Source of the DNA: Cladosporium halotolerans
Taxonomy: Eukaryota
Reading direction: 5' to 3'
Length of the DNA stretch: 64,000 bases
Assembly: GCF_011745625.1 (NCBI RefSeq)
Contig: NW_027191474.1
Span: 186,001-250,000, forward strand
The first letter of the stretch is position 1. The number at the start of each line of letters is the position of its first letter. The notes under the pieces are model-generated. The model had not been told where the DNA came from and searched no databases. It was given only the letters and a program-made list of their open reading frames with translations. This document shows, one piece after another, positions 4,356 to 64,000 of this stretch. The position numbers and the translations under genes were made by a program.

Positions 4356-5700
4356 TTTGGAGGGGAGGGAGGGGAGGCCATTTTGGGTGCGTTGGAGAGG
4401 AGTGTGTTGCTCAAAGGAAGGTGGGTGGTGCTGTCGGTGAGCTGTGGGTGGAGCTGGTTCTGGAAGGTGTTGCTGAGGGGAGGTCCGAGAGGAGCATCTT
4501 GGAGCTTTTCAATGCTCCGGTGGAGCTCGAATGATTTGTGTTCTGACGTTTGTTATTCGGGAATAATCAAGATAGGCTTCGAGATGGAGGTGGGGTTGGT
4601 CGAGATCCGACGGGCTGTCGTCATGCCGGTTGAAGCATGGCTGGCGGTCGATCAGGGTCCACGGTGTGGACATTGCTTTGCGAACATGTCAAATTGATCT
4701 GTGTCTGCTGAAGTCTTGCTCACAGTGCTTGAACCTTTGTGCTTCAAGACAAGGTCTGGATCTTCGATGGCCTGACGTCAGCGACAAGCAGCGGGGCATG
4801 CTGAAAACAATAACATCACCTCGAACACCTTCATACCGCTGGATACTTGACGGTGCAAGATTGTTATTGCTGGCAATGGAAGCTGAGCCGGAACTTGGCC
4901 AGTAGCGTTCATTGCACTGTGGATGAGAACAAGCATGTCGACTACGTTGTCCCGGCTCATGCAGATCCAGACGCATGAGAGTCTATCTGTCGAGGAAAGT
5001 AACAGTTTCGCCTTGCTCGAAGAGGTTGATCCCTCGACCAAGGGACCCAACTCGACACAATTGGAGTATCGACTTCGAGTAGGTCAAGAAGAAACGGTAC
5101 GTACCTGTCTCAGAGACAGGACAAGGATTAGATGCAGATTGCCACGTGTTTACCTCCTATCGTCCTGGAACACGGTCCTCGACGGGAAGAGCGCCCCGGA
5201 TTCACACGTGCGGGTAGTTTGAAGACATCAAGAGCCGTATCCGCCCAGATATGCTAATCGGACACTTTGAAAGATTATCGAGGAAATCCTGCTGGTTCGA
5301 AGCAGACTTCTCGTCGAGGTACATGGCCCGATAGAGGCGGAAAGGGAGGCTGAAGTGACCCAACCGGAGCGCGATACATCATGGCCAAATCGAGCGAGCA
5401 TTGAACTTTCAAGCCAGCCACGATTCTGGCCTCATCTTCTGTCACGTGCACGCGCGTGTGATGAATGCGATGGTATGAGCAAGTAAATGTCTTGGCGCAG
5501 CAGCCACCGCAGCTTTCGATGCAGCGAAGCGTGTGCAACCAACCAGCAGATGCGGATACCTGCTCACTCTTCAGCAAACACCCCGAAAGCGCGTTCACGT
5601 GTCCGAAGCCATGTGTGAGCGACGTGGGTGCGGCGTGGGAGCGGTGGCCAGACCGACTGGAATGTGGACTCTGGCATCCACACCACCACTCGTCCAGCCG

Positions 5701-5706
5701 TATAAA
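5701..5706 (+). promoter_or_regulatory. Candidate TATA box of the reductase gene
   Basis: TATAAA about 80 nt upstream of ATG 5783. Confidence 0.5.
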
Positions 5707-5782
5707 GTGATTGACAACCGACCACCACCTTGAGCCTCTCGACCTCTCTGCTGAATTCTTCGTCGTCACAACAACCCCGACG

Positions 5783-7971
5783 ATGAAAACCGCCGCTATC
5801 ATCGCCGCCGGCATCAGTCTGGCCTCGCCCGCCTCTGCTTCCACCGGCAGGGAAGGCCACGGACTCATCGGTTATGGCATCCAGATGTACAATCCGACCT
5901 GCGCCTTCGCCTGCCAATCATCCATCAGCAACCCCTTGGACTGCCCAGATGCCCATCACGACATGGAAGGCATGGTCATGAAGCGTATGTCCGGCATGCA
6001 CGAGGAGAAGCCTTCGCCCGAATGCTACGCCAACAACGTCCCGTACTTGCAAACACTCGCATACTGCATGTATCAATACTGCGCGGATGATGTGGCCAAC
6101 TCGACTCGCGACAAATTCTTCGAGATGAGCATTGGAGGTCGCATGAAGCAACCGCCGAAGCCGCTGTACTCCTACTCTGAAGCGTTGCTCAGGATCGATC
6201 GTGCGCCGACGAACACCACGCCGGCAGAGGAAATGCTGATGGAGGTCAGCTTGGTGGCGGAAGAGGACTATCTCCCGAACTTCAACGGCAACTATGGCTT
6301 CGAGAGGGCTGAGGGTGTCCACTCTCGCTATGGGTGAGTCTATGATGATGCTTCATGCATTATCCTGTTTCTCAGCTGACAGATACCAGAATCATCGTCA
6401 TGGCCACTGGCATCGCGATCCCAATCGCAGCATCCCTCCTCCGATTCCTGCCCCTACCAAAGCGTCTCGGAAATCGCCTCAATGCCTACTTCAACTACCC
6501 ACCCGCTATGGGGTCCCGGCACAGCACTCCGCTTCTGAATCTGATGATCATGCCGACTCGCGGACAGTCTCTGTTCTTATTCTATCTGGTGGCCGTCAAC
6601 GTCATCCTATGTTCGGTCGGTTTCGAATCTCGCCAGCCCAATTCCTGGTTTGCTTCATCCGCAGAAGAGATCAGATCGCTTGTTGCGAATCGCACGGGTG
6701 TGCTGAGTCTGGTCAATCTCGCACTCTCTGTACTATACGCTGGCCGCAACAACTTTCTCATCTTTCTCACCGACTGGCCGCAGTCTACTTACCTTCTGCT
6801 CCATCGCTGGACGGCTGGTATCGCTACCTTACAAGCTTGCATCCACTCAGCGATCTACCTGCACAACTACCTGCAATCTGGCGATCATGCAACGGAAGCC
6901 AAGCTCGACTACTGGGTCTGGGGTGTCGTCGCAACGCTCGCCATGACTATTCTTCTGCCGACTTCAATACTTCCTCTTAGACAGAAAGCCTACGAGATCT
7001 TCCTCGCCTGGCATGTGATCGTGGCTTTCTTCGCCATCCTCGGCTGCTATTTGCACATCTTCCTCCGCTTCGAGCGTCAGTGGGGCTACGAGTTGTGGGT
7101 ATACCTGGCATTCGCTTTCTGGGCCTTCGATCGACTTATGAGATTCGCCCGTCTCGCCAGAAACGGCATCTGCAAAGCCAAAGTCACCGTCATCGACGAA
7201 GACTACATCCGCCTCGACGTCCCCGGCGTAACAGGCGAAGGACAAGCCTACCTCTACTTCCCCACCCTCACCTGGCGAGTATGGGAAAACCACCCCTTCT
7301 CCATCGCCGGCGGCTTCCTGCACATCAACCCCGACGCCAAACCCACCGAGACCCACGTCTCCTCCAGCGCCAGCTCCGCCCACGCCTCCACAACCACCGA
7401 CATCGAAAAACACCCCACCGTCTCAGTCAGCCCCACAACCAAACCACACACTCCCACCCCATACTCAAACCCCCACCAAAACCTAACCTTCATAATCCGC
7501 ACCCACACCGGCACCACCTCCCTCCTGCGCTCGCGCGCCTCCCTCCCCCTCCTCCTCGAATCCCCCTACCCCGGCTCCCTCCTCCACCCCACCCCCGCAG
7601 CCCTAAACGCCCACCCCCGCCTCCTCTGCATCGCCGGCGGCGTCGGCATCACCGCCCTCCTGCCCTTGCTCGCCTCGCACCGCGGCGCCCGCAAACTCGC
7701 CTGGGGCGTGCGCAACGCGAGTTTGCTCGCCGGCTTGCGCGATCTGACCGAGGGGCCGGGCATGGCGGGCGTGCATGTGCGGACGAGCGTGGGGGCGAGG
7801 TTGGATGTGCGGGCGCTTGTGGAGGGGGAGGCCGGGAGGGTTGGAGAGGGCAGTCTGGCGGTTGTTGTCAGTGGGCCGCCGGGGATGGCGGATGAGGTGC
7901 GCGCGGCTGTTGTGCGGGTTGTGGGGAGGGGAGGGGTGGTGGGGTTTTGGGAGGAGAGCTATAGTTGGTGA
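5783..7971 (+). CDS. Ferric/cupric reductase transmembrane component (FRE family) with signal peptide and Cys-rich extracellular N-terminus
   Basis: ATG 5783 with signal peptide; intron 6334-6389. Motifs GRNNFLIFLTDW, heme-ligand His pairs (LLHRW...IHS, AWHVI...YLH), FAD-binding ENHPFS, NADPH-binding IAGGVGIT, SGPPGMADEVR, and terminal EESYSW. Confidence 0.92.
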
Positions 7972-9090
7972 GGTTGGGTGGGAGGGAGGGGAAGTGGGGT
8001 TGGGGAGCGAGGTTGGCGTGCTTTTTGTGGCTGCTTAGATGTCAGTACAGTAAACGCATTTCTGGAATCATTCCGCGTGTTCATGTCAATTTCTCAAGCG
8101 ACGTTTATCGCCGCAGCATGCCTTGCAAACTTTCCTCCGTTGGCTTGATCGCTCTAGCGCCCGAGCACCGCTTCAGAGTTGGTAAGGTAGGCAGTGGAGG
8201 CAGTGCAATACGTCTGACTCAGATGAGGAGCACGTCCGGGATAGCCAAGCACGCCACATTTGTCGTCATGATACTCTGCAACGATGTGGATATATCTGCA
8301 CTCGGGAATGCATACAGTCTGCAACACACGCCGGTCGAGTCCGTGCTCCCAACACGTCAAGGCACGTCTGGTCGTTCTGCGTTGAATGCGGACTGAGCGC
8401 GAAAACAGAGGCAGAGAGGCAGACTCGTGCTTAAATTGGCCTTGAAGCTTGAAGGGCGATTGAGGACTATAGTGCCATTCTGAGCAGATGCTTGAAAATG
8501 TACATCTTCATGTGGAATACAAAAAATAGACACGTATGGGTCCCAAACGACGTACGATGTCCGATCGATCTGGTGGGATATCATCGGGGAGGTCAATGGC
8601 TGCTGAGAACGGTATGCCCAGCGCGTTATGCGCGTCAAAGAAACAAGCATGGCTGAGGCGCGACGTAGGTCACTCGACGCTATGGAGGCACAAGTTTTCG
8701 ACATTAATAAATTATTTGACGGCGATGCTCGTGAAACGGACAAAGAGAGTCGTCACGAACACATACAGTAGCCTCGAAGACTTAACATCGAATCAGTCCA
8801 CCTCTACAATGGACGGTACAATTCCCAAGAGAACAAGATGTCGAAACGTCGGTAAGCACCGTTCAGCAGTAGACAGGGGAAAGTTTTTGTGAACGCAATC
8901 CAAGATACCTAAGCGTAGAATGTACGAAAAGACAAAGCATGCCATTAGATCCACTCCAATCCAAATCTCACTCGCAAGCCAATAACATCTCATCAATGAA
9001 CGTCGCGCATTCAGCGCCCAGGTGCAATACCAGGAGACCGACCTTTCGCCGTACGTATCCGCCCGCCTCGTCTTGGAGAAGGCGGTTCAA

Positions 9091-40135: not shown

Positions 40136-42775
40136 TCAGTCATCCAGAACAATGACCACGGGCTGACCGGGAGGACAACAGTTCCCCGCTGCCAACATGA
40201 GCTGATTGTGGAAGCCGCTGAGCAGCCACTCGGCCTTCGTGAGACTTTGAAGCGCCTCATCGCCCGTCATCTGACACCAACGCGACCACATGACGCTGAA
40301 CTTCGAAGCCCAATAGCAGTCACAACGGGACAGGATGTATTCAGCTTCATCAACCGTGGTACGGCGCCCAAAGTACAGCGTGCTCTTGTAGATGATCACA
40401 TTCGAGTCGTTGGGCGGTGGAGTCCAGTGGAGTGGATGACGACAAGGCTTTCCCGGCTTGCAGTCAGGATGCGTACTGCCGCGCGAGATTTGAGCATGGG
40501 TTGAATCGAAGCCGGCAGACAAAGCTGGCTGGCTGCTAGGTCCACTGGTCACCGCGGGTCGCGTTTCAGCGAAGGTGGTGCAACTCCGTGGTGTCTGAGT
40601 GAATGGATGAGGGCGTGGCTTTTCCGGCGATGGTGGCAGAGAAGCTGCCCGTTTTCTGTTTCGAATGGGAGCGAGTTCCTCGTCACGAACACTTGACAGC
40701 TTCTTTTGATCAAGTGGATTTGCTGAAACAGAAGTCGCGCGCAGCTGTGGAGACACATGGGTGCCATTGGGGATCGTGGTGGAAGCTCCCTCCTCCGACA
40801 CATCTTCCAAGGAGGCGACATCAGTAGTCGTCGTTTTGGATGGTGGTAGACCCCCGGGTGGAATTGAATATGGGTTGATATTGGCCGAGCCGGATGCCGG
40901 TGGGTTGTCTTCCAATTCCTGCCACAGAAGGCTCAGAGCATCCTCGGCGGGCCCGGGCAGGGTCGAGCCTTCTCCAGACTTTGGCGTCGATGATGAAGCC
41001 TGCAAAATTGTTGAGGTGCATTTGACAATCGACGAGTGAATAGCTTGCTCTCTTGATCCAGGTGGATCAGAAATCTCTGCCGCAGCAGAAGCGACACAGC
41101 TTGTCTGCGATGCGGTGGGATTAGGAGCGGGTAATGATGCTGCCGTAGTCGGACGGCTTTTCATCGAAGTGGTTGGCAGCGCTCCAGATGATGGTTCGTC
41201 GCAATTTCCGTTGGCTTCATTACCGTCAAATCTCTGTCGCACAGATGCAATCTGCGAACTCAAGCCATCCCGTGGGTGACGAGTGGAAGTCACCGAGGTC
41301 GGGTCCCAGAATGACTCGTCGTCAATAGCGCCTTCCTCGGCTGTGTCATTGATCCTATTGAGTACCTGGATATCCGAGTCACCTGAGTCGCTGGAGTCGG
41401 AATCGCTTTGGTCGTCATCGTTGAAGTGGTCGAACCATGTGTCTGTGTCCGAGGGTTGAACTTGATCTCGACGACGTTGACCGCCAACACCGTCAGTGAG
41501 GCCTGATGTGTGGCTCCCTATGCCTGGTCAGTGAATGATACCCTCAAGAAGATTGACAGACTTACGCTGTTGCGTCGGGCCCACTGTGTAATGATCACAA
41601 AGTACGTTCTCCTGTGTACCGCAGTTCGCACAGGCACCGTTGAACCACAACTCTTGTATGGGGCCGGAGCGCACACATTCTGCGAAGAACACAACTCGAT
41701 CTCCTAGGCACCTAGTACACTCATGGCTATGGGCCTCGGTGCCAGTGACCTGGAGAAGGATCGCGTTGCGTCTACGCCGAACGCATTTGTAAAGCCTCCT
41801 CGAATATTGGAATTGCCTGTGCCAGCGGAGTGGGCGAACCTGTGGTAGTTTCATGAGGTTGCGAAACGACTTACCACCATGGTCCGCTTGAGAGGTGATG
41901 CCTTTGACCTCCATCAAGATCCGGTAGATGGCTGGGTAGAGGTCCAACGTGGGGTGGGGCCGGATGAACGGCCAGGTTGAGGCGACATGCAGCTGCGCTG
42001 CATGATATTCTTCTTCTGTCTGAGGCAGAACACTTCCAGGAGGGAAACGTGACTCCGCGATGTTAAGGACCGGTCGTTGCTGCAAACCCCGGTAAGTGCG
42101 ACGTACTGCAGGCCTGTGAGCGGAAGCAGTCCCTTCGAACTCTGCTATGGCTGCTTGGGCGTTGGCAAGATGCTCGCTTGGTTCCAAAGTGTCGTCATGC
42201 CACCGAACTTTGCACATACTGACACCATGCCGCATTCTCCATTTGAGGGTTACCTCGATGTGCCAGATGTCGCCATTGATGATCACATGTGCCATCTGTT
42301 CCTCTTCGCCAGGTATAACGAGTTCCGTCGGGATCCATGTTGATTTCCAGCGGACAAGATACTCAACGCGGCCATCAACAACCCGTTTGTCGAGTATCTT
42401 GTCCACTTCGAAATCTTGTCGCTTCAACCCAGCTTTTGTCTTGGTACTACCAGCATTTGTACCTTGTCCAGAAGATGAGCAGCCTGTCAACGATGCTGTT
42501 TTGGAAGGCACTGGCATTGCCACGCTGGAACTGGTAACACCGTCCCGATGCGACACTGGAGACGATACTGGTGGCGTCGGAAGGCATGTTGCCACGTTCT
42601 CAGATGGCTGTCCTGTACTCTTGGTAAGAGTTGGTGAACACGAGACAGTCTTCGATGTGCCGTCCGTGTCGATGCATGCGCCAGACGTCGCCAACAGACC
42701 CTTATCGGTTGAGCTCGAAGAGGCAGCGCGAGACAGCGCGGGTGACCTTGGCTGGTCTGACTTCAGGTTGCTCAA
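40136..42775 (-). CDS. Large hypothetical protein: tandem chromodomain-like region + DUF3716-like Cys cluster + acidic/disordered linker + C-terminal Cys/His domain (5' end uncertain, possibly ATG 42915)
   Basis: ORFs 41528-42775 and 40136-41293 join in frame through a 48-nt intron at 41565-41518 (GTAAGT...ACTGAC...TAG). FEVDKILDKRVVDGRVEYLVRWK, KVRWHDDTLEPSEHLANAQAAIAEF, and CTRC...FAECV...NGACANC. Confidence 0.75.
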
Positions 42776-44721
42776 TCTGAAGGCGGTGCGCGACCCTCAT
42801 GACCACTGTCAGTTGCTAACTGTAACTAGGGTTCGGTAAGGGGCAATTATGTACCTGAAGAAGATTCGGTCTGACCATCGAGTGCGCTTTTGGAAGCTGC
42901 ACTGCTCTCCGGCATGAGTTTGTCTGATTGCCGATTAGTAAAGTGTCAACGTCCGGTCACGTTGTAAGTTTTGTGGCATACCTCCAACAAGTCTTGGCTC
43001 AGTCGTTCTGGTTGCCGATGCACTGTGATCTATCATAGGAGTCAGAAATGCATTCAGATACTTCGCGATTGATGACCCTATAACAATGGTACCTTTCAGT
43101 CGAATCGTAAATTTCGTATCTTGGAACGGCTTCCCGACGCGATCAATCGGTCGTCGCCAGCTCAGTTCTGTTAGAGTCAGACAACACCTTGCAACACGAA
43201 GATAGCGAAACGAACTTCTCAACTTCGCTTCAAGCTGCGAGTCTTTTCGCCGCTCTGCTTCTGCACGTAAGGCTGCTCTTACGGCTTTACGTTCTTCCTG
43301 GAACTCACGCAAGCCTTGCTGCCGGGTTTTGCGCCGTAAAAGGTCCTGATTTTCTGGGTCGGCGGTAACCTCACGGATGAAGAGCGGAAGAAGACTGTCG
43401 ATTGCGAGGTCGACGCGTCGAGAAGATATCGACATTGGTGAAAGCAGATGACGGGCTATACGAGAATGAGTGTGAAAATTGAGATAAGCCTCCGAGTGTA
43501 ATTGTAGTTTGTATGCACGTATCGCGTCAGGTTCGCGGCGCGCGCAAATTCTAGGGCATGTGGGACAAAACTCACTGTCTTTGCTCTGATGAACGCCCCA
43601 ACCAGACGGCGTGACAATCAGAGTGACGCAGCTTGACCTACCGTGTCGGAGTGCATTGGGCCGAGTGACACTGTTGACCATAGCCAGCGGCTAAGGTTTC
43701 CATGAATTTGGGGCACATTGCCATGGGTGACCTGGATGTAGCGCTGTCGTTTGCGTGCATACGGGGACCGCGCATGGAGTGAACGACTGCATTACGACGA
43801 CGCTTCCAAGCGAATTTGATTTTCGGGCGGAAGTGGCTGGCAATGAGCTTCATTGTCCGGTGGAAAAGCCCGCCGACTTTGAAGCATGTCAGCTTCCCAC
43901 GTATGCCTCCGAGCTCTATGAGTGACTCGGAAAGCGTGAGCTTGAAGAAGAATGACTTCGTGGAGCATCGAGCCCGTCGAATCCACGTCCGAGCTTGCGA
44001 GTCGTTCGCGTGTAACGTCAAGACATGCGGGCAGTTTCGAACATACGAAATACCCACTGTGAGATATTGCTGCAGCCACTGGCGGCAAAGCGGAATCAGC
44101 GACCAGGTCTCCAAGATTTCTCAAAAGAACTCCCTACAACGCAGCAAAGTAAGATCTGGGCCGAAAGGGGCCACGGCAGGCTCGAGAGAGATCCAGGTGT
44201 GCAGTTCCAGATGCCATCGTCGTGTTGGGAAGGGCGGCCAAAGACGCCATCGTTGCCGAAATGTGATCTCTCAGATGCGGCTCCGCGACGAATGTGGCGG
44301 GATCCCGGTCACCGCTTAGAAGCATGCAAACCCCCGTGCATCGCATTTACTGGCGCCCAGTAGGAGCTTTCCCATGGCAATGAGGGTGACGAGTCGACGC
44401 CGAGTTGATTCCTTGACACTGCTCTATCTGCAGTATTCCATGGACGTGTCAATGCTCTCGGCAAATTCTCAATTGACAGATGGCTATGGTGGGTTGCAGT
44501 TCTTCTGATCCTTCCACATTAGCTGAAGCCATGTTGTACTCTGCAATCCCTTTGTCAGTCTTGTAATCTGATTTTCGCGAGCATCCCACAATCTCATCTT
44601 CGTGGGCGTCCCGCACCTCGTCAATCAAGACTCAAAGTCGGAGCCCAAGGGGCCAGCACCACGCGGTTCCTGCCTGAGGCATCTCAGTTCGGACGGGTCC
44701 AGTTCTCCCTCACTCTCCAAA

Positions 44722-53900: not shown

Positions 53901-56452
53901 CTAATTTGTCTCTTTTTTGCTTGATGGCGAGTCAGCAAACGCTTGCTTTTGCTTCTTCCAACCTTCTATCTTCGTGATCATGCTAATGGTCATAGGATGA
54001 TCACTTCCTAATGACACGCTGGATCGAACAGCGGCCAACCGCAGCTGCTCAATAGCGTTCTCCGTGCGGCCGCTTCTGAAGAGACTAAGTGCCATATTAG
54101 CCGTGGCAAGAACAGTCCTAGGGTGCGTGAGCCCCAGCGCTTCTTCCATGATGATGATCCCCTGCAATTCAAGTTCGGCGGCTCGGTCATGCAGGCCTTG
54201 GGAAGAGTACACTGCCGCAAGGAGGTTTAGGCTGGCTGCCGTGTCCGGATGCTTTGAGCCGAGTACCTTCTTCTTGATGTCGATTGCCTGTTCATACAGC
54301 TCCTCTGCTTGCGCGAGCAGACCTTGCGCAAAGTATACCGATGCGAGGTTGCTCATGCTTAGCAGCGTCTCCGGATTTTCGGGTCCTTGTATTTTTTGTC
54401 TGATTTCGAGTGCCTGCTTGTGAAGTTCGGCCGCTTGCTCGTATAGCCCTTGCCGGAGATACACTCCAGCGAGGTTGGTCATGCTCGTCGCCGTATATTG
54501 GTTCTCCACGCCAAACAGCGTCTTCCTAACCTCGAGTGTCTGCGAGTGAAGTTCGATTGCTTGCTCGTGGAGGCCCATCTTGGAGTATACTACGCCGAGA
54601 TTATTCATGCTCGTCGCCGTATCTGGAGCTTCTAAGGCCAGTAGTGCCTTTCTGACCTCGAGTGCTTGCACATGCAGTTTGACTGACTGCTCGTAAAGGT
54701 TTTGCTCGTAGTAAACACTAGCCAGAACACCCATGCTATTCGCCGTGTCAAGATGCTTCGGGCCGAGCAAATTGTCCAACAGCGTCAATGAGCGTGACGC
54801 CGCGTTGTCTGCGAGTGCAAGATTGCCCCGGTCCTGTGCGTACCATCCAAGGTTTCGTAAAAGAGACGCGTGCTGCAAAGCCACTTCTCGCTTTCTAAAC
54901 TTTATAGCGACTGTCATAGCTGCATGGGGGAGGAGCATTTGGCAGTTCTCCCAGTCTTCGAAGGAGGCGTACTCAGGAAATGCATTGTCCAGACTTGAGA
55001 TGAAGTGTGATTGGTAGTTCTCCAGCGTTTTCTGAGATTCCAACCAACCTTGCGTCGCCAACTGTACGAGTCTGTGCATCTCGAAGGACGTCTGAGCTCC
55101 GGTCATGGAGATGAATGCATAGTCAAGTAGAGTCTGTATGCCCTCGGTGAATTCTTCATTCTCGGATTCGGAGGACGTCGACGAAACGCTTTCAGTCATG
55201 CTTGCACTGTCGTTCCCTCCAGTCGATTCAGTATCGTGTATTGACAGGTCCGTTGCAGCTTCGCCCCACCCCTTGCTCATGTCATTGAGCAGGGCTTCTG
55301 GAATCGATTGTCGATCGAAACAGCTCATCAAGGACAAAAGATCGGCTGCTGATGTCCTCTGCTCCTGGATATAGTCGAACGAGATTTGCCATGTCAGTAA
55401 TATAGAGTCCGTGGCCTCGCGGTCTCGCCTCGTGTCTCCATCATCGCGAGCCAGGAGGCGCACCATCGATTTGTCGCTCTTCCTCAATTTCTGCACGTAG
55501 TCGGAAATGGACGACCTTCGTGCCTGCTTTCTGATGTAAGCAGCTGCTTGTGCCATTGCTAGTGGCATGAAGTCCAACTCTTTGACCAGCTCGGCGCCAT
55601 GATCCTGGTCATACCCGGCCTGCAGCTTCCTTTGCAGAAGCAACAGCGCATGCGCCTCTCCCATGGGTTCGACCATGACGACGTTGCTTCTGTCCGTTAC
55701 CTGCAAAGCTGCGCTCAAACTCCTCGTCGTGAATAGGAATTTTCCATGCGATGATGGTGGCAGGTAGTCAATGCACCGGTCTCCCGACGGTGGCCGCGGA
55801 TCTTGGCCATCTGCGCGTTCGGAGGCTGGCGGTCGAAGAAGGAACCGTACATCATCGGCGTTGTCAAGCACGAGCACCCAGCTTCCGTTTTCTGGGTCAC
55901 GCAGCCAGCTACGGAACAGCTGGTAAACGTTCGCCCCAGTCTCTTTGTGACCCGGAATCTGTAGTTGGGCAACTACATCACGAACGCTGCTGTCGAATCG
56001 CGGCGCGCTGCTTGCGTGCAGCCAGAACACCCACGTCTCTGGTGACTCGTCTCGGATTTGATATGCGTAGTCGATGGCAATCTGAGTCTTCCTGTAGATT
56101 TGTCAGTGCTGAATGTGGTTGAAAGTCTAGTCGCACGCACCCAACCCCTCCGAGTCCAACCAGGGCGACTCTGGCAGTAGGGACCGATAGTTTGTCCCCA
56201 ATGTCTTTGATGACATTCTCGCGGCGGACGTAGTCGGGGTCTCTTGGGAACGGCACTGTGGAGACGGGCTTTGGTGACTTCTTTTGTTGGTCAGATGCTT
56301 TGATCTTGTAAGTATCTCATGTGGCAAGGGGATGATTGCACGGCTGGGTCACCTGTCGTGATGTTTATTACGTCCCCATAATGCGCTCGGGCACCGTCAC
56401 TTGTCGTGACATTCGTGAAAGAGTGCCCCGTTCGCAGGGGCAGTGCATCCAT
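53901..56452 (-). CDS. Fungal NLR: N-terminal HET-s-related amyloid motif + NB-ARC + TPR (kinesin-light-chain-like) repeats, 815 aa
   Basis: Exons 56452-56353, 56297-56141 and 56091-53901 total 2448 nt in frame. VPFPRDPDYVRR, Walker A GLGGVG/KTQ split by intron 2, Walker B WVLVLDNADD, FTTRS, FMPLAMAQAA, FEMHRLVQ, and about seven 42-aa TPRs. Confidence 0.9.
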
Positions 56453-57932
56453 GAAGTTGTAGTGGTTACCCAGGTAGAAAATGGATCATGATAAGGAACA
56501 GCTTCCTCAGCTGGGAGGGGCAGCTTTTCGGCGTTTGAGCATGAAGGCTGAGCACAACGTCGAGGCAGCCAGAACTGCAGTGTGATTTTTGATAGCCGAA
56601 CCAATCATCATTGCAGCCGCCTCGTCTGGCATTTCTGGCCTCATGGCGCAAGTAACACCTCGTTTGCCCAACTCATGATTCTCTCGCAACTCACCCGACT
56701 TCTAGAAAACGGGCGGATCTCTGTTCCAAGTCTCCGATTCTCACATCTGCATCGCAAATGGCAATCCGTTGGAATATCAAATCTTTCTGCCATCAGATAC
56801 AGAAGATTGCAGCGTCGTTGAATGCATGTTGCATGATTCCGCCCATTGCTGTACGCGTTTTATTCCCCCTGAGCTGGTAATGCAACCTGCGCGTTACCCG
56901 TTCACCCGACGTCCTGGTCTCTCAAGCGTAGCCTCTGTCCATCGATGAACATATGGCGGCAGAATTCTCTGATTCAAATGCGTCTCAAGTAGGCCGAGAT
57001 CACAGCGCCCCCGCCTATGTGAAGTGGATGTCTCCGGACAGACAAGACGCGTCTGTTGAAAAGGATTGCCCGAAGAGTTAGCGACTCGCAAAGAAAAACC
57101 TGAGCGCATGCTGTCGTTGATATATATTGGAGAATGGAAAAGTGGAAGAGGGGTGGAGGCGTTGTGACAGCGTTCTTTGGCGGCGTGATGTTGCTTCGAA
57201 GGCCTCATGAGCGTTGTTCCCATTGCAAGATCGTCGGGACCTCGCAACAAGCCCGAGCACGTGTCAGTCACGGCAGCGAGATGCCTCCGCCGCCGCCTTC
57301 CACCCAACAGGTTTGGTCGTCGCAGGTGGGAGTCCACCAGGCAGTACCGAGTGTCGCCGGACAGCACAAGGCGCCTGTCGCACAAGCCGAAGCCGAGGGT
57401 GCGGCTTTGTTGCCGATTCCACAACGGCCTGCCCTTCCCGAAGGAGCGCCGGCCGCGACCATCACTTCATCTGCGTAATACGAGGCTCGAGCACACGCCC
57501 TTGACTCGCAATGCCTGGCTGTCACGCCGACTTTGGAATATGCGAAACACCGCCCAGCCTCGCAAAGCACTTCCCCTCTCACGCTAGCACCGGCCAGGGC
57601 TTCGGCCGGACTCGCCCGCAAGTGCCGTGACGAGACTCCATGTCGTCCTTCATCTGTACGAAACGCGGAGGCTTCCTCATCCAACTAGCCCGCCGTCCAA
57701 CCACGACGATCATCGCCACAACGCCTTCGGGATCGCTCGTCCGGCGCTTGCGGTGGTCTCCTGTATATTGTGATCCCAAGACTTCGTCGTCGCGCAGACA
57801 GCTCCGGCCGCTGAGCACCCTCGCCCTGCTGACTTCTTGGCTCGCAGCCGGTTTGTCGCATCTACATCGGTTGGGTAAACCTTGCTTCTATGTTCGCAGT
57901 CATCCGAGCAAGCATGTTCGCCCAAGGTGAGA

Positions 57933-57939
57933 TATATAA
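57933..57939 (+). promoter_or_regulatory. Candidate TATA box of the CE1 esterase gene
   Basis: TATATAA about 125 nt upstream of ATG 58062. Confidence 0.5.
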
Positions 57940-58061
57940 GGCGATTGTCGCAGCCACAGCCGTGCCCTCGTTCTGCCCACAAAGCCCTACACTCTCTACC
58001 ACCCGCAAACCCTATTCCTTCATTGCAACTCGCTCGCTTGCTGGTCAAGCTTCTCTTCGCC

Positions 58062-59111
58062 ATGGCCCCTAAGACTCTTCTACCCATCGCAGCCCTGGCC
58101 ACTGCGGCTCTGGCCCAATCATCCAGCGGCTGCAATGGTCAAGCCACACTCACCTCCGGCGTGCAGAACATCAACAACCGTCAGTACACCCTGAAGATCC
58201 CCGACGGCTATGACTCCAGCAAGCCTTACCGCCTCATCTTTGGCTTCCACTGGCTCGGTGGTTCCATGGGCGATGTCGTGAACGGCAACAGCGTGCAGCC
58301 GTGGTACGGCCTTGACGCTCTCTCCGAGGGATCGGCCATCTTCGTCGCCCCGGACGGCATCGACAATGGCTGGGCCAACCAGGGCGGTTCCGACATCGAG
58401 TTCGTCGACTCGATCATCGAGCAAGTCGAGTCCGACCTCTGCGTCGACCAAGGCTCCCGCTTCGCCACCGGTTTCTCCTACGGCGGCGGCATGTCCTACG
58501 CCGTCGCCTGCGCTCGCGCCGGTGAATTCCGCGCCGTCGCCCCCATCGCCGGCGGTCTGATCAGCGGCTGCGACGGCGGCAATGACCCGATCGCCTACCT
58601 CGGCATCCACGGCGTGAGCGACAACGTCCTCCCCATCAGCGGCGGCATCGAGCTGGCCAACACCTTCGTCACCAACAACGGCTGCCAGCAGAAGAACATC
58701 GAGCAGGTCGCCGCCGGCAGCGGCCAGTCCGCCCGCACCGACTTCGAGGGCTGCTCGCAGCCCGTCTCTTTCATCTCCTGGGACGGCGGCCACAGCGGCG
58801 CCCCCTTCGGCACCAGCAGCCAGCTCGCCCCGGACGCCACCTGGGAGTTCTTCACCTCGCTCGACAACCAGGCCGCCACCTCCGCCAAGAACGCCAGCGC
58901 CAGCTCCAACTCCACCTCTTCGGCCGCTCCTGCTACTTCGCAGGCTTCCGGCTCTGGCTCGTCTCAGCAGTCTGGTGGAAACGCTGGCAGCCCTCCCATG
59001 TCCGGCGGCTCTGGCGCGCCTTCTTCCGGCTCGAACCCGTGGCAGGCTCCTCCCAGCAACAACCCTTGGGGTCCTCCCTCTGGCTCTGGCTGGAGGCCGT
59101 GGTCCGCTTAA
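58062..59111 (+). CDS. Secreted carbohydrate esterase family 1 feruloyl esterase (FaeC-like)
   Basis: Signal peptide then [67 protein letters not shown]; Ser/Gly/Pro-rich tail. Confidence 0.92.
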
Positions 59112-60376: not shown

Positions 60377-62494
60377 ATGCTGCTCCTCTCCGCCAGAGCG
60401 CGCGCACTTTGGGGCCATGCGCCCCGCGTGCGATCTGCGACGGCCGTCCGGCGCGGCCTGGCCTCCGTCGCAGATCAGATAGACGCTCGGTAGGCGATAC
60501 CTCATCCCCAATCCAGCACCGCCTTCTCACTGACACCTCTCAGACCACCAGTAGACGTCGTAGTCATCGGCGGTGGCCATGCTGGATGTGAAGCCTCGGC
60601 TGCCGCCGCCAGGACCGGTGCGCGCACGACTCTCGTCACTCCTTCGTACGACAACCTCGGCGTCTGCAGCTGCAACCCATCCTTCGGCGGAATCGGCAAG
60701 GGAACGATGATGCGCGAGATCGATGCGCTGGACGGGCTGGTCGGACGTATCACGGACAAGGCCGGGCTGCAGTTCAGGATGCTCAATCGCAAGAAGGGGC
60801 CGGCCGTGTGGGGACCCAGGGCACAAATCGATCGCAAACTGTACAAACGGCACATGCATGAAGAGATGATGGCGTACCCGGGCTTGACGGTCAAGGAAGG
60901 GAAGGTTGCGGACATCGTGGTGGACCAGTCACCCGAAGCCGCTGCTGAAGGCCGGCATGGAAGAATCACAGGAGTGCGGTTGGAGTCTGGAGAGGTGATA
61001 CCCACCAGCAACGTCGTCATTACGACAGGCACATTCTTGGGAGGCGAGATTCACATCGGATTGGACGCTTTTCCTTCTGGACGTATGGGCGAGGCTGCGA
61101 CTACCGGGCTGTCGAATTCATTACGGGCCGCGGGTTTCCAGCTAGGTCGTCTGAAGACCGGTACACCCCCTCGTATCGATAGAGCATCCATAGACTGGAA
61201 ACGATTGCAAGTGCAGCCTGGCGACAACCCTCCTACGCCCTTCTCTTACCTTAATGACCGCGTGGCTGTTGAGAAACAGCTTGACTGTCACAGCACACAT
61301 ACGAACCCCGTGGTTCACGACATCATCCGGGAGAACTTGGAAAAGAGCATACACATCCGGGAGACCATAAAAGGACCGCGGTACTGCCCATCACTGGAGA
61401 GTAAGGTCATTAGATTCACGGATAAGGACCAGCATTTGGTCTGGCTGGAACCGGAAGGCTTCGACAGCGATGTCGTCTACCCCAACGGCATCAGTATGAC
61501 AGTCCCTGCCGAAGTGCAGGAGCGTGTCATCCGCGCCATGGTTGGTCTTGAAGACGCCAAAATGGTGCAGCCTGGGTATGGCGTTGAATATGACTACGTC
61601 GACCCGCGCAGCCTCAAGCGCACTCTGGAGACAAAATCGATCAGTGGCCTTTTCCTCGCTGGACAGATCAACGGCACGACTGGGTACGAAGAAGCCGCGG
61701 CCCAAGGTATCCTCGCTGGAGTCAACGCAGGTAACCGCGCTCTGGACAGACCAGCCTTCACCATGAGCAGAGCGGACAGCTACATCGGCATCATGATCGA
61801 CGACCTCGTCACGAAAGGCGTCAGCGAGCCCTACCGCATGTTCACATCCCGCTCAGAATACCGCATGAGCGCCCGCGCCGACAACGCCGACCTCCGCCTC
61901 ACAGCCAGAGGCCGCGAAGCCGGCGTCGTAGGCGACACCCGCTGGCGAGCCTTCTCGGACGAGAAACAACAGCTCTCCGACCTGCGCGCGCTCCTCGACG
62001 CCAAAACCCTCAGCTCCCAAGCCTGGATCGCGCAAGGTCTCCCCGTGCGCAGCGACAGTGTCAAGCGCTCCGCTTTCGACCTCCTCCGTCACACCGCCGT
62101 CACCACCGCTTCCCTCCTGCCCGTCGTCCCCGAAATCGCCTCTTTCTCCCCCCGCATCCTGGCCCGTATGGACATCGAAGGAGCTTACGCGCCGTACATT
62201 ACGCAGCAAGCCGCGGCCGCGCTGTCTTTCGCGCGGGACGAGAACTTGCTGCTCCCTGCCGATCTCGACTACGAGGCGATTTTCGGCTTGAGCTTCGAGG
62301 AGAAGAAGGCTCTCGGCAGCACGAGGCCGGAGAGCTTGGGGCAGGCGAGGAGAGTCGAGGGCGTGACTCCTGCTGGCGCCTTGAGGTTGCTTGCTCATGT
62401 CAAGGGTGGGTATCGCAAGGCCAAGAGGGAGCAGATGGTCAAGGAGACGATGGAGGGCTTGCCGCCTGGTGCGGAGGCGGATGCTGTTGCTTGA
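60377..62494 (+). CDS. MTO1: Mitochondrial tRNA uridine modification enzyme Mto1 (GidA/MnmG family)
   Basis: Presequence exon 60377-60489; intron 60490-60543. [76 protein letters not shown], and [13 protein letters not shown]. Confidence 0.96.
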
Positions 62495-63355: not shown

Positions 63356-64000
63356 ATGACATCGCCGACGTCTTCAGGCACCATCAAACCCGCATTTTGG
63401 CGCATACAGAACATCAAGGCCAGTGAGAAAGATGATGCTATAGAGTGGCTGCGCGCGCAGACAGAAGAGCTGAGAACATCGGAAGGCCAGGGATTCAGCC
63501 TAGCGGCCGATAGCGACCGAACACTGTGCGCAACGCTCACGACCTACGAGCGGCCAACACCGGGCAACTACCGGTGGCGTGTGGACCAGGACTTCATCGG
63601 TTTCACGCCACTTTGCGATCCGGACGACGCGAGAGTCGACATCATCGCACTCACTGGGCTGGGCGGGCACGCTCTGGGGTCATTCCGCTCAACTGATGGC
63701 AAAACGGTCTGGCTGCGGGACTTCGCCCACGAAGACTTGCCACGAGCACGCTTTATCACATATGGCTACAAGACTGACGTCGCCGAAAGTAATAGCAACC
63801 AAGGTATTCGCGAGCTCGCGCACACTCTACTGGACGGACTCGCCAGCTTCCGCCGGCGTACACTCACGCAGCAACGCCCACTTTGCTTCGTCTGTCACAG
63901 TCTGGGCGGTGTCGTTCTGAAAGAAGCACTGGTTCTCTCGAGCAAAGCTAGTGAGCCGCATCGTCGAGAGCTACACGACGTCGTAATGGCTACCTACGGG
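63356..64000 (+). CDS. SesB-like/SERAC1-like alpha/beta hydrolase domain, 5' part of a gene running off the window (often an NLR N-terminal effector domain)
   Basis: Open frame from ATG 63356 to the window end, absent from the ORF track because it has no stop: VDQDFIGFTPL, DIIALTGLGGHALGSF, VWLRDF, RFITYGY, RPLCFVCHSLGGVVLKEAL. Confidence 0.85.
   Translation, partial: MTSPTSSGTIKPAFWRIQNIKASEKDDAIEWLRAQTEELRTSEGQGFSLAADSDRTLCATLTTYERPTPGNYRWRVDQDFIGFTPLCDPDDARVDIIALTGLGGHALGSFRSTDGKTVWLRDFAHEDLPRARFITYGYKTDVAESNSNQGIRELAHTLLDGLASFRRRTLTQQRPLCFVCHSLGGVVLKEALVLSSKASEPHRRELHDVVMATYG

Follow-up and report, generated by a model that had tools for sequence, protein, structure and literature searches.

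A short first exon encodes a candidate HRAM3-type amyloid signalling motif in an NB-ARC/TPR receptor gene of Cladosporium halotolerans

In Podospora anserina, the r0 motif of the NOD-like receptor (NLR) NWD2 reportedly templates the r1/r2 repeats of the HeLo protein HET-S. We analysed a 64,000-nt stretch of the Cladosporium halotolerans genome (NCBI RefSeq assembly GCF_011745625.1, contig NW_027191474.1, positions 186,001 to 250,000 of the forward strand; hereafter the window, numbered from its first nucleotide), in which a minus-strand gene at 53901-56452 appears to encode a receptor of comparable organization. As in NWD2, the NLR carries one motif of ~21 residues at its extreme N-terminus and lacks any other effector domain, and the G-[ND] turn, the arginine at motif position 15 and the hydrophobic pattern are common to this motif and NWD2/HET-S. 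The two receptors differ in that NWD2 is a NACHT-WD protein and adjoins het-S, whereas the window gene encodes an NB-ARC/TPR protein and has no partner within the 64 kb. The canonical motif of HET-s also has asparagine at position 3, where the window motif has histidine. We consider it probable that the window gene encodes an NWD2-like NLR whose sole N-terminal part is a single r0 motif of the HET-s-related amyloid motif 3 (HRAM3) type, which would template a separate execution protein.

Five HRAM subfamilies were published in 2015 (Daskalov et al., PMC4518210). By the position rules given in that paper, an HRAM has glycine at position 19, hydrophobic residues at positions 5, 8, 10 (where T is tolerated), 16 and 18, and preferably R or K at position 15; position 3 separates subfamilies, N marking HRAM1 (canonical HET-s), Q HRAM2 and H HRAM3. 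The window motif shares H3, R15, G19 and the hydrophobic positions 5/8/10/16/18 with HRAM3 as described there; that family was defined from HeLo proteins and adjacent NLRs, whereas the window shows the NLR side only. According to the survey of Wojciechowski et al. (2022; PMC9815663), most N-terminal HRAMs of NLRs begin at positions 5-9, and a G[DN] bigram is typical. Its HRAM3-like class, NLR12, draws mainly on Sordariomycetes, in which the NLRs are of NACHT type and PNP_UDP effectors bear a single motif; the effector is rarely co-localized, and NLR-side copies stand to effector-side copies as 5.7:1. The first 30 of the 56 NLR12 rows in supplementary file 2 of the survey include 'NB-ARC TPR' NLRs (EWZ28760.1 and EXL39767.1). 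Judged by this class description, the window NLR resembles NLR12, 'NB-ARC TPR' members included, in its N-terminal HRAM3-like motif, and departs from the mainly Sordariomycete class in that its nearest named relatives are Dothideomycetes (Cladosporium, Elasticomyces, Teratosphaeriaceae). NB-ARC/TPR STAND proteins that begin with a prion-forming domain (PFD)-like segment have been on record since 2012 (PMC3321046), and PP-motif pairs of the HELLP/PNT1 type as well as sigma/SesB-type motifs are known on NB-ARC/TPR NLRs (PMC3321046, PMC5485727). A preliminary description of this DNA, made by a model from the letters alone, had implied that the arrangement was new. This cannot be upheld, since NB-ARC/TPR proteins with PFD-like N-termini (PMC3321046) and with HRAM3-like motifs (PMC9815663) were already catalogued; the literature already covers the architecture, the motif family and effectors that are unlinked to their receptor.

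The minus-strand gene consists of three exons separated by two short introns, and joining them gives a 2448-nt coding sequence of 815 codons in which the sole stop is the terminal one:

56353..56452, minus strand: exon 1, 100 nt; ATG (56452-56450); codes for the entire N-terminal extension with its amyloid-type motif; ends in phase 1
56369..56431, minus strand: putative HRAM3-type core, 21 residues (positions 8-28), TGHSFTNVTTSDGARAHYGDV; assigned from the published position rules and the HeLo-side profile described below
56298..56352, minus strand: proposed intron 1, 55 nt, GTGACC...ACTTAC...AAAG, phase 1; placed from the sequence and the paralogue loci
56141..56297, minus strand: exon 2, 157 nt; linker SPKPVSTVPFPRDPDYV, then the beginning of NB-ARC as far as the first part of the P-loop (GLGGVG)
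56092..56140, minus strand: intron 2, 49 nt, GTGCGT...CTGAC...CAG; splits the P-loop codons, with good fungal signals
53901..56091, minus strand: exon 3, ~2.2 kb; P-loop KT, Walker B (LVLDNADD), DUF7779 and TPR array; stop codon at 53901-53903

Exon 1 translates into 33 codons, MDALPLRTGHSFTNVTTSDGARAHYGDVINITT, plus one base. The joined product has the features of a fungal NB-ARC/TPR NLR (STAND NTPase): a P-loop whose GLGGVG and KT halves lie on either side of intron 2, a Walker B motif, a winged-helix region, a C-terminal TPR array and a single open frame. In Pfam searches exon 3 matched TPR_10 (6.2e-56, 7 stretches), TPR_12 (2.3e-54) and DUF7779 (33.7 bits). NB-ARC scored 13.7 bits on exon 3 alone, which is under the cut-off because the P-loop sits on exon 2, and homologues of the window NLR carry the PF00931 annotation. 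Exons 1 and 2 match no Pfam family at E<=10, and ~45 residues lie before VPFPRD, the start of the NB-ARC region. Read from its sequence, 53901-56452 is an intact NB-ARC/TPR NLR with a pre-NB-ARC part of just ~45 residues. The preliminary description had likewise held that the protein is NB-ARC-TPR, unlike the NACHT-WD of NWD2, and that it has no other N-terminal effector domain; both statements agree with the present analysis.

An upstream exon is required, because the frame of exon 2 (ORF 55978..56316, open from 56316) contains no Met before the P-loop. The frame of exon 1 has a stop 11 codons upstream of its ATG. One relative, known from open reading frame (ORF) fragments only, provides a direct comparison: its exon-3 counterpart (P0001) is 95% identical to the window exon-3 product, and a second fragment of 95 residues (P0122) retains 30 of the 33 exon-1 residues (32/36 by BLASTP when the next three codons are included). 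P0122 and the window diverge completely right past the proposed donor, and upstream of the Met the open reading frame of P0122 differs from the frame read in the window, as would be expected of untranslated sequence. On the acceptor side, the exon-2 linker resembles the paralogue linker ...PPSPLSTVPF.RDPDF... (SPKPVSTVPF vs PPSPLSTVPF), so the acceptor must lie upstream of ~56278.

Paralogues show the same arrangement. A search with 400 residues of the NB-ARC part found 62 metagenome paralogue loci (identity <=53%), with no orthologue of the window NLR among them. Two of these loci (L002 and L046) carry the same motif type and share the three-exon layout of the window gene, in which a motif exon is followed by a linker exon and then by an intron that splits the P-loop. 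Their first introns (GTAAGC...CAG in L002, GTAAGT...CTAAC...TAG in L046) have canonical signals, are in phase 1 and begin 9 and 5 codons, respectively, past the motif G[DN]; window exon 1 ends in phase 1, 6 codons past GD, and so matches them in phase and place. The P-loop-splitting intron is common to L001, L002, L028, L036 and L046. Comparison of P0006, an annotated protein from Cladosporium, with P0121, the same protein as an unspliced ORF, reveals an intron at the equivalent place, and the annotated model of P0006 fuses a similar motif to the NB-ARC domain. Exon 1 and its donor are very likely real, the exact acceptor of intron 1 is likely correct, and the proposed junction 56352..56298 is the most likely of the alternatives. 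The sequence facts of the preliminary description, a 100-nt exon at 56353..56452 joined in frame via a 55-nt GTGACC...CTTAC...AAAG intron, hold and yield the open 815-codon coding sequence; the junction itself is a prediction. As a separate observation, the P-loop-splitting intron of L002 (2650-2720) was read as ending in an AAG acceptor. If this reading is correct, AAG acceptors, as proposed for intron 1, occur in the gene family.

With Gly26 taken as position 19, the exon-1 motif fits all of the HRAM rules (H3, F5, V8, T10, R15, A16, Y18, G19, D20). Gly26-Asp27 provides the glycine followed by N/D, R22 is the positive charge at position 15, and F12, V15, T17, A23 and Y25 occupy the hydrophobic positions, A23 being merely a small hydrophobic residue. 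Position 3 is H10, which points to HRAM3. There is a single copy of the motif, starting at residue 8, at the extreme N-terminus of an NLR in which Pfam finds no other effector domain in exons 1-2. Among the 120 relatives of the NB-ARC part that were listed, P0006, P0069, P0003 and P0091 start with the same motif layout at residues 7-12; the position-3 His is present in P0006 and P0069 and absent from P0003 and P0091. Many of the 120 open instead with a G.Q.G-type (PP/sigma-like) motif. The preliminary description had named conservation as a test of the motif, and the 30 of 33 residues kept in P0122, together with the layout in these four paralogues, speak for it.

An N-terminal profile was built from the window exon and the four paralogues and searched against 1.84 billion representative proteins. 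It matched 86 proteins at E<=1e-3, for the most part at the N-terminus of an NLR-like protein; 77 of the 86 contain the core pattern, 59 have the position-3 His and 49 carry the match within their first 90 residues. At least two cores in the last 90 residues were found in 7 of the 86, including one low-complexity repeat protein (P0160). A Pfam scan covered 33 of the matches, chiefly the longer and the evidently repetitive ones. Eleven of these have NACHT/NPHP3_N NTPase domains and six have a HeLo domain (P0148, P0166, P0182, P0192, P0131 and P0146); the first five of the HeLo proteins have two C-terminal H-type repeats each, which is the architecture of HET-S. An NB-ARC-type P-loop is visible in several short matches (P0143, P0153, P0199). 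The enrichment of the matches for NLR N-termini and HeLo C-termini is independent evidence for the motif, and the doubled C-terminal motif on HeLo proteins that goes with an HRAM is seen at the level of the family only. A search of a word index with the motif alignment returned 6 proteins from 183 candidates, P0121 and P0122 among them.

A second, HeLo-side profile was made from 12 repeats of six HeLo proteins and run against 1,408 sequences (every window ORF of >=30 residues, together with the spliced NLR product and the 120 relatives). The top score was that of the exon-1 ORF (32.8 bits, E 3e-9), followed by the spliced NLR (28.8 bits); the paralogues P0003 and P0069 scored 24.1 and 14.1 bits. 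When the exon peptide was shuffled 20,000 times, no shuffle scored as high as the real sequence (at most 12.2, against 35.2 bits). Both profiles were built in this analysis because the two curated Pfam models fail to match. The proposal that the N-terminus carries a HET-s/NWD2-type motif is borne out by the HRAM rules and by the 33-35 bits obtained with the HeLo-side profile. Scoring against HRAM or HET-s_218-289 profiles, which had been suggested as a check, gave a divided result: the profile built here returned 32.8-35.2 bits, whereas neither Pfam HET-s_218-289 nor PF17108 matched at E<=10. Taken by the published position rules and these profiles, the assignment of the exon-1 motif to the HRAM3 type is supported.

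Three of the retrieved proteins are unusual. The ankyrin-repeat protein P0137 ends in one H-type motif (residue 676 of 719) that closely resembles the window motif, P0150 combines a ubiquitin-like domain (ULD_2) with an H-type motif at each end, and the HeLo protein P0146 has an additional H-type copy near its N-terminus. Such proteins may represent additional classes of effector, or their gene models may have been joined wrongly.

Among the paralogue loci, three of the 62 (L028, L001 and L038) have a HeLo gene that is divergent from the NLR and whose product ends in a G.Q.G-type motif with a match at the N-terminus of that NLR; L001 and L038 read alike across the ORFs compared:

L028: HeLo gene at 4579-5457, minus strand; NB-ARC/TPR paralogue at 5569-7881, plus strand; shared G.Q.G-type (PP-like) motif
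L001 (L038 likewise): HeLo gene at 4385-5206, minus strand; NB-ARC/TPR paralogue at 5512-8235, plus strand; shared G.Q.G-type (PP-like) motif

By their predicted proteins, L028 and L001/L038 are textbook amyloid-signalling pairs inside the receptor clade of the window NLR. The window gene shares this clade and its logic with the PP/sigma-type systems, and differs from them in belonging to another motif family and in having no G.Q.G core.

Several observations count against an HRAM3-type NLR with a separate execution protein, and they fall on the gene model, on the motif and on the partner. The intron 1 donor GTGACC and its AAG acceptor are off-consensus, the junction is a prediction from sequence, and around intron 1 there are 35 in-frame GT..AG combinations, some of which cut within the motif. 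These are also the grounds for supposing that the gene model is wrong, i.e. that exon 1 lies outside the mature mRNA, that splicing truncates the motif, or that the gene is a pseudogene with no usable start. We think this improbable, given that no other Met precedes the P-loop, that P0122 matches the exon along all of its 33 residues and departs from the window sequence only from the donor on, that L002 and L046 have a phase-1 intron at the equivalent place, and that P0006 is annotated with a like motif joined to NB-ARC.

As regards the motif, neither HET-s_218-289 (PF11558) nor the 23-residue HET-S model (PF17108) matched the 33-residue exon or the 53-residue read-through at E<=10. The HeLo proteins retrieved likewise stay under the PF11558 cut-off (27.0 and 16.3 vs 32.2 bits). 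Nine of the 86 profile matches lack the core pattern, and 6 of the 33 that were scanned are evidently spurious repeat proteins (bacterial LapA-repeat proteins P0126, P0127 and P0194; also P0125, P0133 and P0161). The closest paralogue motif, that of P0006, reached just 5.3 bits with the HeLo-side profile. The HeLo proteins were retrieved with a profile that contains exon 1, so the HeLo-side test is not fully independent. Our full-text literature search for HRAM3 gave no experimental study of an HRAM3 motif, and the NLR12 row of Table 1 in PMC9815663 lists no experiment. A short motif with no Pfam match, some of whose profile matches are clearly spurious, might resemble an HRAM by chance, in which case the N-terminal peptide would be a disordered leader with no amyloid function. 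The shuffles, the agreement with every HRAM position rule and the concentration of matches on NLR N-termini and HeLo C-termini make such a coincidence very improbable.

The partner is the third difficulty. Of the 64 kb of the window, ~54 kb lie 3' of the gene and 7.5 kb lie 5' of it, and nowhere in this stretch was a second copy of the motif found (best other tblastn match E 0.55; a regular-expression and hidden Markov model scan of all ORFs returned the exon only). Pfam detected no HeLo, HeLo-like, SesA, PNP_UDP or patatin domain in the 30 long ORFs of the window and no domain at all in the short ORFs flanking the NLR gene, and a profile of four HeLo proteins found no HeLo gene in the window, short exons included. 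With neither a second motif nor a HeLo domain in the window, the classical adjacent pair is absent here; the search was limited to these 64 kb, and a partner may not exist. This absence is consistent with the rare co-localization published for NLR12 pairs (PMC9815663). A DUF676/SesB-like gene near the end of the window was considered as the partner and rejected, since its relatives include NB-ARC/TPR NLRs and none of 113 relatives has the motif (best E 0.44).

The exon could then be a genuine HRAM-type exon whose cognate effector is missing from the genome, either as the relic of a lost pair or as a motif that acts solely between NLRs, for instance as a decoy or modulator that co-aggregates with other HRAM3 NLRs. 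Besides the lack of a partner in the window, an orphan of this kind would fit the 5.7:1 excess of HRAM3-like (NLR12) motifs on the NLR side with rare adjacency (PMC9815663) and the N-terminal location of 49 of the 86 profile matches. It has to be set against a motif that is near-intact in a 95%-identical relative despite diverging flanks, an intact NLR reading frame, and public proteins that include HeLo proteins with doubled H-type repeats. We regard an orphan motif as unlikely, and prefer an NLR that signals to an execution protein encoded elsewhere.

The remaining features of interest in the window are the following:

63356-64000, plus strand, continuing past the window end: gene with an N-terminal DUF676/SesB-like alpha/beta-hydrolase domain (PF05057, E 1.2e-4)
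57879-59108, plus strand: ORF of 410 residues with a Ser/Gly/Pro-rich tail, between the NLR gene and a GidA/MTO1-like gene (60494-62491); no Pfam match at E<=1e-3
41531-42796, minus strand: ORF in which Pfam finds a chromo domain and DUF3716

Among the nearest relatives of the 63356-64000 gene (73% identity) are NB-ARC/TPR proteins from Cladosporium, 845 and 932 residues long, and by this kinship the gene most likely encodes another NLR, of the all-in-one kind, ~7 kb from the first. The 41531-42796 ORF is possibly a chromatin protein or a mobile-element remnant.

By analogy with NWD2/HET-S, binding of a ligand by the TPR array of the window NLR would lead to oligomerization via the NB-ARC domain. 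Several r0 motifs would thereby be gathered and could adopt a beta-solenoid-like amyloid fold, which would in turn serve as a template for the corresponding motif of a separate execution protein, whose gene would lie elsewhere in the genome. The likeliest partner would be a pore-forming HeLo protein that ends in two HRAM3 repeats, and a protein of the PNP_UDP type is possible. More tentatively, and with considerable doubt, we suggest that HRAM3-tagged NB-ARC/TPR and NACHT receptors across the genome all act in trans through a single unlinked effector or a small number of them ('many receptors, few executioners'). The effectors of such a network could include classes without an earlier tie to HRAMs, of the kind represented by the ankyrin-repeat and ULD_2 proteins P0137 and P0150.

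A gene model without the 100-nt exon 1 would lose the signalling part of the receptor, and automatic ORF calling missed this exon in the relatives P0001 and P0122 as well. The value of the locus lies in a corrected gene model and in a testable HRAM3 example, which would add a further NB-ARC/TPR receptor to those of HRAM3-type amyloid signalling.

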